Assembly: GCA_036338595.1 (NCBI GenBank)
Contig: JAYZBV010000040.1
Span: forward strand, 1-26,338
Length of the DNA: 26,338 nucleotides
Origin: Planctomycetota bacterium
Lineage (GTDB): Bacteria; Planctomycetota; UBA8108; UBA1146
Reading direction: 5' to 3'
Below are positions 15,001 through 21,000 of the stretch, piece after piece (within the stretch, counting starts at the first letter, position 1; the number at the start of each line of letters is the position of its first letter). The position numbers are program-made.

Positions 15001-18000
15001 ACCGCAGCGGTGGGGGTAGGCTCTGTGGTGAATTCAGCGACAGGGAATCGGGGGACAGCATCGAAGAAACAACACCTTCTCCCCCGCCGGACTCCCGTCG
15101 CGATGGGATCTGGGCACCCGGCAGCGGCAGTCGTGGATTGCTCCCAGCAGGGGTGCACTTCTCGACGCAGGTGGCGATTTCAGATCAGATCGAATCGCTG
15201 GAAGTCGCCGAGATGGTGGCCACCGTCGGAGCGGCAACTCCCGTGAGTGCGATTCGCGATGCTGCCGCCAGGCATGGACTCATCTCGAGTGGAGTGCTTC
15301 CCGATGAGACGGGAACCATCGGAGGTCTGTTTTCCGATCCCAGAGAAGGACCTGCGGATCCTGCCACCGGAAGATTTTGCGATCATGTCCTTGGCATCGA
15401 GGGTGTTCGAGGCGATGGATCGCCGATTTTGTCTGGCGGAACGGTCGTAAAAAATGTCACAGGCTACGATTTGATCAGACTGATGGGCGGGGCTCTGGGA
15501 GCACTGGGAGTGATCACCAGATTACACATCAGACTGGAAACAGCAGCGGCTTGCTGGAAGTCGCTTTCATTCGGGTTTCTGAATCGGCCGGAGGATTGGA
15601 GTGTTCTGGACCAACTTCGAAGGATGCCCTTCGAGCCGTACTTGATGTCGATCAAGCCTGCTCAGCAGCAGGTTCAACTGTTGCTATCTGGAACTCAAAG
15701 GGCAGTCGATGAGATGGCGTCATTCATCCGGGAAACCGTTGGAGATGTGGAAACAACGGAGTTCGATCGTGAACAGATGATCTCATTTCATCGAGAGCTA
15801 CGATCCAGGGAGGGAACGGCTCTCAGAATCAGGGTTGGATGGAAACACTGGTGCTCGATAGTTGCCCACGACGCTGGAACCTGGCGCGCCATCTGTCCTT
15901 CTGCGGGATACGGACTACTTGAACGGTGGCAACCAGGTTCCGACCTCGATTTCCTGGTCGAGAAAGTCGCATCCGTAGGTGGATCGGTGACTGCAGAAGA
16001 TGTCGAGGCCTGTGAGCGATCGGGTATCCCGCTGGTTCACCCCAGCGCCTCTGACACTCTGACCAGGAGCCTGAGGATGCTATGGGATGCCGACGGAAAA
16101 ATACCATGGCAGGGAGATCGGTGAACAACATCGACGCTTCGACGATTCCGGCGCTGAAGGATTGTGTCCACTGTGGACTCTGTCTTCCGGAATGCCCGAC
16201 CTATTTCGCCAGCGGTAGAGAGGCTGAATCTCCCAGGGGCAGAATTGCTGCACTGCGCGCCGTGGTAGAGAGTCGATCCAGCATCAGCGATGCCATCCAT
16301 GATGGGATGGAAAGTTGTCTCGTATGCCGTGCATGCGAGAGCGCATGTCCTTCAGGCATTTCCATGGAACACTTGATGGCGCACTACCGTCACGAGAGTC
16401 GACCGCATCGTGGCGATCTTTCATCGGGAATCGAATCCTGGCTGTTGAAGAGAGTGATACCGCATCCCGGTCGCATCGGTGCACTGCTTGGTGGCTTGCG
16501 TTTGCTTGGACCCCTGTTGCGAGTCTTGCCGGCGACTCATGATCTACCGTCGGCGAGCCGATTGAGACCAGAGCCGGAGATCCCTCACCTGATCGAGGCG
16601 AAAGGGAGTGTTCGCGGAACGGTGTCCATCTTGCGTGGCTGTGTGGCGGACCGTCTCTTTCGCAGGGAGACGCATCTCTCTGCCCGATTGCTATCCGCGG
16701 CCGGGTGGAGGGTGGTGGTTCCCCCCGCTGGTTGCTGTGGTGCCCTTCACCATCATGCGGGCCTCGTTGAGGAAGCCAGGCAGCACTCGTCGCATCGCTG
16801 GAAAGATCTCCACGCACAGGGAATCGACCATGTTGTCGTGGATGGGGCAGGTTGCGGTGCCCATCTGTTATCAGAGGCACCCCCGGGCGCACCGCCCATC
16901 ATCGATACAGCCACCTTGCTGGCACAATCAGGGAACTTTGATATCAAGCAGAAGTTGACGGGACGATCGGTGTTATCGGTGCCGTGTCATCAAAAACACT
17001 CGGCACTTTCACTCGATGGTGGAACAGAGCTGCTCGATGCCTGCATCGAGGAACGGGTCGAACTCCCCGAGCCGGATCACTGCTGCGGGGCGGCTGGAAT
17101 GTACCTGCTTCGCCGAAGAAAAATGTCACGACTCATCGGCGACCAGGCCAGGAATCGCTTCGAGAGATCTGGAGCCGATACCATCATCAGCGGAAATCCT
17201 GGATGTCTGTTGAGATGGGAGGGGCTGCTCGGGCCAAAAAACGCCATCCACCCGGTTCGCCTTCTGGCCCATGCGTGCCATCTGGAGCCGCTTTAGTGCC
17301 GAAGCAGGACAATTTGATGCAGATGTGGCATGATCTCTATCGTGGACGGTAGTGGCCATAAGGTGTCTGCTGTTTCGATAGGCATATCTCGTAACAGACA
17401 TCGTTTCTAGCAGGGGAAAAAGGCGGATTCCACCATGTCGATGTTCACCCGACTTGCTGCTGTCATTTTCACCTTCATGCTCTTCTACATCTCGATGTTG
17501 CTCTTTCAAGAGACGCTTCCGCTTCCGGAAGAACTTTCACTCCTATCCGCAGACTTTTTCTCCCTGATGGCACGATTCGTGGGGGCCTGCCTCGTGGCGA
17601 CCGTTGGCCTTGGAATCCTGATGGAAGTGGGTGTCATCCCGGACTGGGGGAATCTGCGGCAGCGAACGGGTGGAGGAGCCACACTGCCAGGGGATATGGC
17701 TGAAGGTCATGGAGAAGATGAGCATTCGGGTCACGGTGGAGATCCTGGAGAGATGATGGTGCTTCACGGGGTTGCTGTTCCGAAGGAAGTGCTGGATCAG
17801 TTACAGGATGAGGAAATGTCCGACGAGACCCTGATCTCCATCGCCAACAACTTTGATGATTATGAACCGTCGGTGAGCGCTTTGATCATCCTGAGTGATC
17901 GACAACGCGGTTCTGCGGAACTCGATGGTCTAGTGATCACGCAGAATACGCCTCCGGCATGGGATCGGCTGGCAGCGAGAGCCCTGATGAGGCGAGATCC

Positions 18001-21000
18001 TCGGTTCACCCTCAGTGAGTGCCTGATCAAGTTTCCATGGTCAACCGATGAGGAGATGCAGAAGGTCATCTCGGAACATCTTGAGATCGTGGTTCATCGG
18101 AGCACCCCCGATGAGGATGCTGATCGAGTTGCTCAATGGATCAGTACGTGGCAGGGCCAGGTCGAACCGGGTCTCGACCTGATGCGCCGTTTCCTGCACG
18201 AAGAGTTCATGGAGATTCTCAGCGAAAAACTGAAAGCAAAAAAAAGTGCATTGACGATCGACTCTGTGGCCAGTCTCTGGAGCGAAGAAGAGATCGAAAG
18301 AAACAAGCAGGAGTGTGTCGAACTTCCTGGAGCAGAGAAGTATCGGACCAGCATCCTGAAGCGACTCGAAACCGCTGAGCCGCGATCGATGTTGCTTGTC
18401 GGTGCCAGTGGTGTTGGAAAAGAAACGCTGATCCGCATGGTGCTGTCGGATCTTGCAGCTGACGGCTGGTCGATCGTGGAAGCATCCGCACAGGATCTGG
18501 TAGCCGGAATGATGTATATCGGCCAGATGGAGGAGCGCTGGAAAGAACTGGTAGGGCAGCTTTCTGCTCCACGAACAGTTCTCTTCATCCCCGATTTCAG
18601 CGAGATGGAATCTGCCGGTCGTCACATGAACAATCCGGTCAGCCTGCTCGACAGGATGATCATAGAAATTCGCCGAAACAGATTGGTAACCGTCGGGCTG
18701 GTCGACGGTTCAGATGTCGAGTCGTTATTGCGGAAAAACCGCTCGATAAGAAAGGTCTTCGATCTGGTCGAGGTGGAGTCGCCCGGTGAGGACGCCACTG
18801 TGGCGGGGCTTCAACTGTGGTTGCAACATGAATCGATCATCAAGGAGTCCGCTGAGCCGATCTCCATCACAGAGGAAGTTCTCAGGAAAATCGTCACGCT
18901 GTCGCAACAGTATCTGACGGCTCAGGATGCCTTCGGATCTTCCTTTGATCTGCTCAAATCGATCCTTGATCGGAAGCGCCAGGCCGGTGAGAGCGAAATC
19001 ACCTATCAGGATGCAGTATTCGCAATCACCGAGCGTTCAGGGATGCCGCGCGTGATCGTCGACGATGAAGAGTCCCTGGATCCGCAAGAAGTGCAGAGAT
19101 TTTTCGGTAAGCGAATCATCGGTCAAGAAGAGGCGATCCAGTGCATGGCTGATCGAATCACACTGATGAAGGCGGGCCTTACCGATGCGGGTAGGCCGCT
19201 TGGCGTCTTCTTCTTCGCAGGTCCGACGGGAACCGGAAAAACAGAAAGCGCCAAGGTACTCGCCGAATATTTGTTTGGCTCGAAGGAGCGACTCGAACGC
19301 CTCGACATGAGCGAGTTGCAGACGGCTTCGGACCTGGGACGTCTGGTTGGATTTCCGGATGGCGGATCGGGCGCATCCCACCGGAGTCTACTCGATGCGA
19401 TCCGACGCCAACCGTTCTGCGTTGTTTTGCTCGACGAGTTCGAGAAGGCGCATCCCAATGTGTGGGACATGTTCTTGCAGGCGTTCGACGATGCTCGGAT
19501 GACTGACACGCGCGGCCAGACCGTGAACCTTCGCCATGTAGTATTCATCCTGACGAGCAATGTTGGTGCGCGAGAAGCTGCACAGGGGGCATTTGGATTC
19601 AATCCAGAGTCAGGCAAAGAAAATATCTACGAAAGAGCTCTCCGTGAGACCTTCAGACCGGAGTTCCTCAATCGAATAGATCAGGTCGTGACATTCCGCC
19701 CCTTCTCAAGAACCGAGCAGAGAGCGCTGCTCGAGATGGAACTCAAGCGGGTCCTTTCTCGAAGAGGCCTGAAGGACCGACCATGGGCCGTGGAATGGGA
19801 AGAGTCTGCCATCGATTTTCTGTTGTCTCATGGCCTGACTTCGCAACTGGGTGCACGGCCACTGCGGCGAGCGGTAGAGAAATTCGCACTGACTCCGATC
19901 GCACAGGAGATGCTCATTCACGACATTCCGAAAGGAGATCAGTTCCTGTTCGTTCGTAGCGATGGGAAGAAGATCGAGGTCGATTTCGTGGATCCTGACG
20001 CGGCGACACAGGAGGCTGAGGAAGCTGAACTACCACCGGTCGAGATCTCAGGTGCGGATCTTCGCAGCGGATCGGAAGCGGTGGCGAGAGTTGCGCTGAG
20101 AGGTTCAGGCAGGCTCGAAGAAGTGATGATACTCGCTGACAGAGTTGAGGTACTCGAGGTCAGAATTGACTCGGAAGAATGGGACGAAGCAAGAAATGGA
20201 GACATGGAACAGATGACCGAGGCTGGTTTCTGGGATTCTCAGGATCGGCTTCCTGTGCTGGCATCGGCGGAACTGCGTGACAGGATCGAATCGGGAACAC
20301 GGACTGCCAGGTCGCTCCTTGATCGACTCGGAGGCGATGCGGAAAATTCTCGTGATCGTTATCCATCCGAGGTCATCCGCCGCCTCGCCATGCAGATTCA
20401 CTTGCTCGAAAATGCTCTTCAGGTTCTCGATGAGAAATTGCCTCAGGATGCCTTCATCCGGATCACTCCAGTGAAACGAGACAAGGAATCCACAGAAGAT
20501 GGTGCACAGTGGGCCAAGCAGGTGACGGAGATGGTCACGACATGGGCTACCAAGCGAAACATGAACCTCCAGGAGTGTGAGAATTCAAACGGGGTCCATC
20601 AGCCTGAAGGGGCCTGGGTAGCAGCCGTGAACGGATTTGCCGCCTATTCCTTGCTCGAACCACTCGCAGGTATCCACGAACTGGAGCGCCCCGAGGCGAG
20701 TCGCAATGACCGTCGCCTTCATGTCCGAATCGAAGTCGTTCCCAGACCCCTCGGAATCGCACCCAGTGGCGATGCCGGACTCGCGACTCAAGCGAGAGAA
20801 GTATTGACTGCTGGTTCCAGCATCGATGAGGTAGTGCGCAGGTATCGGGTTGGAGATAATCCGAAGCTGGTCGATCTTCGCCAGGGATGGCGTTGTGCTT
20901 CACCCGGTGATGCTCTGGCTGGAGACTTCGATCTGGTTGGAAGTTTGGCTGCCTTGACCCGGTGATGAATGCCAGATCGTCCGACCCCGCTAGCGATTCG

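Follow-up and report, generated by a model that had tools for sequence, protein, structure and literature searches.

Two-ring Hsp100 ATPases of the ClpA and ClpC type share a tandem D1-D2 AAA+ core with a hydrophobic-G-F loop, and their D2 end is the exit side that faces ClpP, not the entry side. We know of no bacterial route from a stalled ribosome to proteolysis that is not based on a tag (tmRNA or Ala tails). The release factor RF2 (PrfB; PF03462 and PF00472) has diverged in several directions. PrfH (RFH), a free-standing paralogue paired with RtcB, has retained GGQ but not domain 1, and its domain 2/4 body is re-tooled; this body was described in the A site without mRNA contact, with Asn90 contacting h18 phosphates (PMC9304027). 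The equivalent RF2 residue, Thr216, was described as reading the stop codon (PMC5776981), and BrfA-RF2 rescue was reported to work without the SPF loop (PMC6881298). PrfB3 of land-plant chloroplasts has lost both SPF and GGQ, has no ATPase, and was reported to act off the ribosome as a stand-alone mRNA stabiliser that binds the petB 3' UTR (PMC5897788). In eukaryotic ribosome quality control, Vms1/ANKZF1 and Cdc48 pair a release-factor-like protein with an AAA+ ATPase, although the likeness to the protein studied here is one of concept only: in the account of that system, the factor has the unrelated aeRF1 fold, is catalytically active and is a separate polypeptide (PMC6514570).

The window, the whole stretch of 26,338 nucleotides analysed here, encodes on its forward strand (17435..20965; all features below are on this strand) a protein of 1176 residues that joins both kinds of machinery in one chain. 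The fusion of an Hsp100 ATPase to a release factor body, as proposed in the preliminary description, is borne out by the open reading frame, the tail profiles and the tail model alike. The protein begins with a predicted membrane anchor of two hydrophobic helices (residues ~7-26 and ~39-65; 17453..17629), seen as hydropathy windows at 7 and 50 and as helices in the full-length model. Such helices had been thought absent in distant homologues, but hydropathy places an anchor in 105 of 126 homologues, distant ones mostly included. Most relatives have one anchor helix. An all-helical domain follows (residues ~107-278; 17753..18268). It is not Clp_N, matches no Pfam family and has no usable match in the ESM Atlas; in one relative, this domain gives a faint HEAT_2 match (E 0.088).

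Pfam (PF00004, PF07724 and PF10431) finds two tandem AAA+ modules with a ClpB-type D2 small domain, in agreement with Foldseek, whose best matches to the core are ClpC. TIGR03346 (E 1e-83) and TIGR02639 (E 3e-83) match the core with scores far below their cut-offs. The assignment as ClpC-type did not survive. There is no match to PF02861 (Clp_N) among 24 Pfam families or to PF17871, and, as in ClpA, the M-domain is missing. The two Walker A motifs are 273 residues apart (250-319 in the family, 260-279 in 128 of 143), compared with 337 in the two ClpC-like proteins of the same genome. In the D2 tree, the ATPase and three-gene sets from myxobacteria form one clade apart from ClpA, ClpB and ClpC (SH-aLRT 99).

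The two rings have lost different functions. D1 (18284..19060) has the Walker A sequence GASGVGKE (18401-18424), in which Glu or Lys at position 330 replaces Thr in our protein and its close kin; the preliminary description had called the motif degenerate in close kin. At the Walker B position, it now reads LFIPDF (18578-18598). The hhhhDE pattern is found in none of 144 parsed relatives, compared with 23 of 40 in a control set, and the Asp position is Pro in 143 of 165. The D1 pore loop is retained (AGMMYIG, 18503-18523), with its aromatic residue kept in 154 of 165, and the pore-2 AGxH motif is conserved (Gly in 164 and His in 119 of 165). D2 (19082..19990) is by its motifs an intact, active-type ATPase, with Walker A GPTGTGKT (19220-19243), the Walker B DE pair, sensor 1, Arg finger R747 and sensor 2 R808 in place; of 165 proteins, K602 and D667 are each conserved in 163, E668 in 164, and N709, R747 and R808 in all. 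It lacks the GYVG pore loop (19340-19390), which is absent from 159 members of groups A and B, 13 of group C and 26 of group M, and is present in 25 of 41 other Clp-like matches and in both ClpC-like proteins of the genome. Because every parsed member lacks the D2 GYVG and D1 lacks Walker B, the name unfoldase is doubtful, and the protein is probably not a strong one. An F-G-F motif of the ClpP-docking type lies at 19592..19600. In the alignment, the [LIVFM]-G-F loop occurs in 159 of 165, and a narrower search window still finds it in 145 of 159, which suggests docking on ClpP. Two clpP genes are present in the genome.

The 300-residue tail is, by profile and by predicted fold, a true RF2 paralogue in which domains 1, 2 and 4 follow one another as in RF2. 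Pfam PCRF matches residues 981-1096 (E 4.7e-5; 23.7 bits against a cut-off of 24 bits) and TIGR00020 (prfB) residues 901-1086 (E 6.3e-5). As a single query the tail did not find the genome's RF1 or RF2, and profiles were needed. A tail profile built from 89 full-length proteins, our protein included, was searched against 17,554 six-frame ORFs; just two exceeded the threshold, RF2 (E 2.1e-13) and RF1 (E 5.4e-9) of the same genome. Descent from a class I release factor stands, with RF2 rather than RF1 as the donor. A 55-row tail profile matched a solved RF2 with E 1.1e-16. The AlphaFold model of the tail (pLDDT 93.8) matched RF2 in Foldseek (E 5.7e-11) and RF1 in VIA-align (Z 16.6). The best ESM Atlas match is PCRF (0.92), and PrfB3 is also among the matches (0.85). 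The earlier PCRF and Atlas results were reproduced. In one pair, pN/pS is 0.18-0.22 in the tail and 0.77 in the anchor, uncorrected and with pS near saturation; the tail is under purifying selection.

What the tail has kept and lost bears directly on its function. The domain 1 equivalent (20114..20431) is a three-helix bundle with an invariant FW at residues 932-933. The domain 2 equivalent (20444..20743) has lost the SPF stop-codon loop (0 of 157 and 0 of 11 tails) and the GxGG tip (a GxGG-like tip in 3 of 157). The GGQ domain had been described as cleanly deleted. The GGQ sheet is indeed gone, as is the switch loop, but the loss of 71 residues (a spacer of 56 compared with 127) consists of two gaps, between which part of helix alpha7 survives (residues ~1112-1126; 20768..20812). 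Likewise, the letters GGQ, said to be missing from homologues, do turn up: 4 of the 157 tails of the subfamily have them, though never at the catalytic position. Domain 3 is deleted in subfamily A and is present without GGQ in subfamily B, in which all four RF2 domains are collinear (hhalign 99.7%, 300 columns). Catalysis probably died before the deletion, since sister subfamilies hold a pseudo-domain 3 without GGQ; this suggests a stepwise decay of RF2, in an order taken from a tail tree that has a single RF1 as its root and carries a long-branch warning.

Domain 4 (20831..20932; RRYR...D...GWR...GDFD) is rich in arginine and more basic than in RF2, with a mean net charge of +2.5 (n=142/157) compared with -1.2 (n=23/26). 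R1135, R1136, R1138 and R1153 are present in 152, 143, 148 and 150 of 165. In domain 2, the position of R1094, which aligns with RF2 Thr216 and PrfH Asn90, is Arg or Lys in 160 of 165. Of 11 PrfH rRNA-contact residues checked, 10 have no conserved counterpart in the tails or lie outside the aligned part; the mapping used one E. coli sequence, because a search of 101 genomes from a different phylum gave no PrfH.

The fusion family is widespread and apparently unstudied. The gene is carried by 21 of 59 genomes of the class, exactly as first counted, and by 18 of 27 within the family, where its presence is near-vertical. The tail is matched by 490 representative proteins (50% identity clustering) and found in 321 GTDB stretches. 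The Hsp100 clade spans more than ten phylum-level groups in a patchy manner, and its cultured hosts include Rubinisphaera margarita and Myxococcus xanthus. Sister subfamilies have HEAT-repeat N termini, and some clade members (L191, L192 and most third genes of the myxobacterial triplets) have no tail at all. Several assembled members contain frameshifts. In agreement with the preliminary description, we found no account of the fusion or the clade among the records listed from the open literature, subscription papers and bioRxiv supplements being outside this scope; Burroughs and Aravind (2019) mention neither Clp nor PCRF in text or supplement.

We tentatively favor a ClpP partner that binds ribosomes independently of the codon and threads unfolded chains. 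The membrane-tethered ATPase would assemble as a ring and dock on ClpP. Its RF2-derived tail, judging from its fold and conserved basic face, would bind the ribosome, in the simplest case at or next to an A site that is empty or aberrant, and would neither read a stop codon nor release a peptide. D1 pore loops may grip the substrate without ATP hydrolysis and D2 may hydrolyze ATP without a gripping loop; therefore, already-unfolded chains would be threaded and stable proteins poorly unfolded. Substrates passed into ClpP could be, for example, nascent chains on ribosomes that have stalled close to the membrane. The RF2 fold, the basic domain 4, R1094, purifying selection on the tail, the ClpP loop and the two clpP genes point in this direction, as do the PrfH, BrfA and ClpA precedents. 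ClpA without its D2 pore tyrosines was reported to degrade unfolded substrate equally fast or faster, while folded substrate needs them (PMC8666677). That mutant had an active D1, which is dead here, so threading would need coupling from D2 to D1. Against this reading, all known decoding-centre anchors of RF2 (SPF, GxGG and switch loop) are lost and most of the PrfH contacts are unconserved. The tail also follows D2, on the exit side rather than the entry side, the flanking genes include no conserved translation gene, and part of the clade lacks a tail.

Three Clp-like ATPases of M. xanthus, MXAN_4823-4825 (1149, 1127 and 836 residues), may offer weak support. Unlike our protein, they are soluble, are encoded by three genes, are known from transcript data and have far more divergent tails, that of the second gene hardly aligning to RF2 (hhalign 3.5%). 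The clade of the fusion ATPase includes M. xanthus proteins of corresponding length; P0239 and P0304, both without GYVG, belong to it. The locus tags were assigned to the clade by species, length and gene order with the accession unmatched, and ABF88121.1 and ABF91057.1 are absent among the accessions listed (15 of 52 cluster members). Chloramphenicol was reported to induce the operon (log2FC 1.5-3.6), as part of sets of 297 and 625 upregulated genes that include MXAN_4832 (ClpC) (PMC6617876). It is one signal of many, in a distant subfamily and through a presumed locus-tag link.

Loss of the stop-codon and switch elements fits codon-independent docking, as in PrfH, and would fit equally well a role off the ribosome, as in PrfB3. 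A ClpP partner for unrelated substrates, with the RF2 body serving as an RNA-binding, protein-binding or autoregulatory module, perhaps an M-domain substitute, is possible but on balance unlikely. Besides the PrfB3 precedent, the tail decays by degrees and even vanishes across the clade, and the full-length model (pTM 0.76) indirectly suggests that it is held in one position against the AAA core. The surroundings show no link to translation: no translation-linked gene and no RtcB were found by Pfam among 110 flanking ORFs (over-represented genera left out), which are of housekeeping type and unconserved, and no conserved neighbor across phyla emerged from BLAST clustering of 100 loci, in which spurious frames and close kin prevailed. 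The genome, 88% complete, has no prfC (RF3) above cut-off. A scan for promoters and terminators gave signals at chance level. No RNA data set was listed as containing the gene, and contigs from two runs cover parts of it, none spanning it whole. Subfamily B, however, keeps the four collinear domains; the ribosome requires this shape, which would be costly elsewhere. The decoding-face position, moreover, holds a basic residue almost without exception.

Neither ring combines hydrolysis with a pore-1 aromatic, and in our protein and its close kin the Walker A Thr of D1 is lost too. The protein could thus be a remodeller that binds the ribosome and leaves its pore unused, D2-driven ring movement dislodging or splitting a ribosome complex or gating ClpP; we find this rather unlikely, because the conserved D1 pore aromatic, pore-2 AGxH and ClpP loop suggest that the channel is used. 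The patchy spread over many phyla and the HEAT-repeat N termini of sister subfamilies would suit an effector of conflict or phage defence, one that responds to infection by stopping the translation machinery or breaking it down. Such a role is improbable given the housekeeping, unconserved neighbors and near-vertical presence within the family; PADLOC matches only the generic D2 region, and the tail as a single query, of low sensitivity, gave no plasmid or phage matches. An artefact or vestigial fusion, to which the PCRF score slightly under its cut-off and the frameshifts might point, is highly improbable and already refuted by the breadth of conservation, the invariant tail residues and purifying selection.

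Extending the favored ClpP-partner reading, one polypeptide, widespread in bacteria, might perform ribosome quality control: a Clp ring with six disabled RF2 bodies would dock on membrane-associated ribosomes that are stalled or stop-less and hand the unfolded nascent chain over to ClpP, needing neither tmRNA nor an Ala-tail tag. Its split between a gripping D1 and a powering D2 would be one not known from other Hsp100s. We regard this as a speculative and rather doubtful proposal. If true, it would provide a direct physical link from the stalled ribosome to proteolysis, and the anchor would suggest that these ribosomes are bound to the translocon. Even with the tail off the ribosome, the family represents a distinct Hsp100 clade in which the dead D1 retains its pore loops and the active D2 lacks them. 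It is a natural experiment on grip-power coupling in two-ring motors, and it documents an apparent stepwise decay of RF2.

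The gene at 17435-20965 (+ strand) encodes a protein of 1176 residues with Pfam matches to AAA (residues 319-411), AAA_2 (587-750) and ClpB_D2-small (761-836). The PCRF match at residues 981-1096 claimed in the preliminary description was found again (E 4.7e-5), slightly under the Pfam cut-off. The tail is a paralogue of RF2. The release-factor relationship was not visible in a single-sequence search of the tail. A profile of 89 full-length proteins detected, above threshold in this genome, only RF2 (E 2.1e-13) and RF1 (E 5.4e-9); the RF1 match reported before stands, but that to RF2 is stronger. 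With a 55-row tail profile, solved RF2 (E 1.1e-16) also ranked over RF1 (best 8e-12). The predicted tail model (pLDDT 93.8) matched RF2 in Foldseek (E 5.7e-11) and RF1/RF2 in VIA-align with Z scores of 16.6-16.2; the next unrelated structure scored 10.8, and the release-factor paralogue PrfH 9.4.

RF2 domains 1, 2 and 4 are retained. In RF1/RF2, 127 residues separate the E.G.H motif from the R.Y strand, against 56 in the query. The GGQ sheet is gone, as had been proposed, but the deletion is not clean. It consists of two gaps, one removing the GGQ sheet and the other the end of helix alpha7 and the switch loop, with a remnant of alpha7 still present between them. Motifs were counted in 200 proteins of at least 850 residues, thinned to 165 at <80% identity: 157 of subfamily A, the query type with the GGQ domain deleted, and 8 of the sister subfamily B, which has domain 3 without GGQ. 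Among the 157 subfamily A tails, none has SPF and three have the GxGG tip; GGQ strings occur in four, all elsewhere in the sequence.

We propose, tentatively, that the tail would dock on the ribosome independent of the codon, and that unfolded chains would be threaded to ClpP. The tail is under purifying selection, and its domain 4 block is more basic than that of RF2. Residue 1094, equated with RF2 T216 and PrfH N90 in an ungapped register, is Arg or Lys in 160 of 165 proteins; by inspection, five of seven subfamily B tails have Arg at the equivalent position. As described for PrfH, the same body can sit in the A site and yet not read mRNA (PMC9304027). Against ribosome binding, SPF, GxGG and the switch loop are all lost, and the tail lacks counterparts to most of the PrfH contact residues. 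It comes after D2 in the chain, which is the exit side of the ring; the neighbouring genes are not related to translation, and tail-less members of the clade exist. The plant paralogue PrfB3, reported to be a real RF2 without GGQ and SPF that acts on mRNA ends (PMC5897788), also counts against binding and is a precedent for an off-ribosome role of the tail, a role that we consider somewhat less likely than docking.

The threading proposed here would depend on an unusual motor. In D2, Walker A, Walker B, sensor 1, the Arg finger and sensor 2 are each kept in 163-165 of 165 proteins, and the [LIVFM]-G-F loop in 159. The D2 GYVG pore loop is absent from all 159 proteins parsed, a variable polar loop taking its place; it is present in both ClpC-like proteins of the genome and in 25 of 41 other Clp-like matches, the latter being a control set in which divergent proteins are over-represented. 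D1 keeps the pore aromatic (154/165) and the Walker A lysine (158/165), while none of 144 has the Walker B DE, and in 143 of 165 the Asp position holds a proline; the Walker A Thr, too, is missing from the query. Judged from these motifs, D1 is the mirror image of D2, with its pore loop residue kept and Walker B gone. In ClpA, the D2 pore tyrosines are reported to be required for unfolding stable substrates, and the D1 loops to be enough to engage and translocate unfolded ones (PMC8666677). Because ClpA D1 is active, whereas D1 here lacks the Walker B DE, this result would carry over to the family by inference. A remodeller that does not thread its substrates, favoured by the missing GYVG of D2 and disfavoured by the retained D1 aromatic, seems improbable, and a role in defence highly improbable.

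The protein had been described as ClpC-type. This identity is ruled out by the absence of a Clp_N domain (none found by Pfam) and of an M-domain (the two Walker A motifs are spaced 273 apart, against 337 in the two ClpC-like proteins of the genome). Membrane helices had been thought missing from distant homologues, but of the 126 subfamily A proteins whose N terminus is intact, 105 have at least one hydrophobic helix, followed by a conserved helical domain. The predicted membrane anchor is therefore typical of the family and no local oddity. Several of the 21 without a scored helix have a short hydrophobic stretch below threshold and others none; some members of ~870 residues lack both helix and helical domain.

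Upstream of the gene lie glcD-, glcE- and glcF-like oxidase genes (10435-17296, +), split by a 910-residue ORF that runs the other way (12033-14765) and has faint Pfam matches only. An M16-peptidase-like ORF (inactive-domain match) and a 483-residue ORF without a Pfam family (20990-23830, -) converge on it; the M16-like neighbour recurs beside family members in L041 and L042, stretches from relatives. Three ORFs have weak dockerin and cohesin-like matches (3041-4174, -; 4533-5309, -; 9125-10375, +; E 1e-5 to 0.05). The genome also encodes an ArfB-like GGQ ORF, two canonical ClpC-like proteins and two clpP genes, one ~4 kb from prfA (contigs C5:8255-8725, C65, C27, C78 and C37); no RF3 scored over the cut-off in it. 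In Gaiella-like Actinomycetota (L068, L070, L073, L089, L093, L097, L104), phoH and yqeY adjoin the gene on the opposite strand with a lepA-like gene nearby, a lineage-specific arrangement.

Searched with the tail at E <= 0.001, representative proteins at 50% identity gave 490 matches, of which 150 were listed and which may include weak true release factors; at 1e-10 there were 339. A pattern-limited search of the species genomes in GTDB gave 378 stretches, of which 321 were confirmed. Titles among the 80 listed include at least Actinomycetota, Acidobacteriota, Gemmatimonadota, Eisenbacteria, Calditrichia, Alpha-, Beta- and Gammaproteobacteria, Bacteroidota, Planctomycetota, Verrucomicrobiia, Methylomirabilota, Thermodesulfobacteriota and Deltaproteobacteria. 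The family is present in 18 of 27 other genomes of the query's own family, 24 of 401 of its phylum and 21 of 59 of its class, the last agreeing with the earlier count. Members in L036, L044, L051, L053, L056 and L097 are broken into at least two frames, through sequencing error or as pseudogenes. No description of the family was found in the part of the literature searched, which included the main release-factor survey (PMC6514570).

Sister subfamilies surfaced among the weaker matches. The alignment of subfamily B with RF2 covers 300 columns and extends through domain 3 (hhalign 99.7%). G-R-[LFI] stands where RF2 has GGQ, and most members retain the H-x-P strand; one member matches Pfam RF-1 (E 0.004). 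The spacer shortens from 127 in release factors to 92-120 in B, 88-101 in subfamily C and 45-59 in A, a range also reached separately in L177. In the tail tree, A is nested among B-type sequences (SH-aLRT 94; single RF1 root, with a long-branch warning). On these sequences, the simplest reading is that catalysis was lost before domain 3 was deleted.

Three-gene tandem Clp sets occur in 9 of 121 genomes searched in another phylum. In hhalign, first-gene tails align to RF2 with 97.9%, against 0.2% for a reversed control; two of the third-gene tails reach 95.5%, and second-gene tails barely align (3.5%). The sets in L182-L190 comprise three GYVG-less ATPases (two found in L190) with a common N-terminal domain, and the third gene in L182 and L184 retains an RF2-like tail. 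L191 (1846-4404, 853 residues) and L192 (1271-3907, 879 residues) encode GYVG-less D1-D2 proteins of the clade without an RF2 tail; the N terminus is HEAT-repeat in L191 and similar in L192. Two M. xanthus proteins, P0239 (1127 residues) and P0304 (764 residues), fall in the same D2 clade. From species, length and gene order, we infer a link between the M. xanthus members and MXAN_4823-4825, given as 1149, 1127 and 836 residues (PMC11423568). These genes are reported to be induced by chloramphenicol, among 297 and 625 up-regulated genes (PMC6617876).

A tree built from 75 D2 rows unites A, B, C and the three-gene sets in one clade, separate from 16 ClpA/B/C-type proteins (SH-aLRT 99, quick search). 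The fusion is real and conserved, and the clade is a new group of Hsp100 ATPases that belongs neither to ClpC nor to the release factors.
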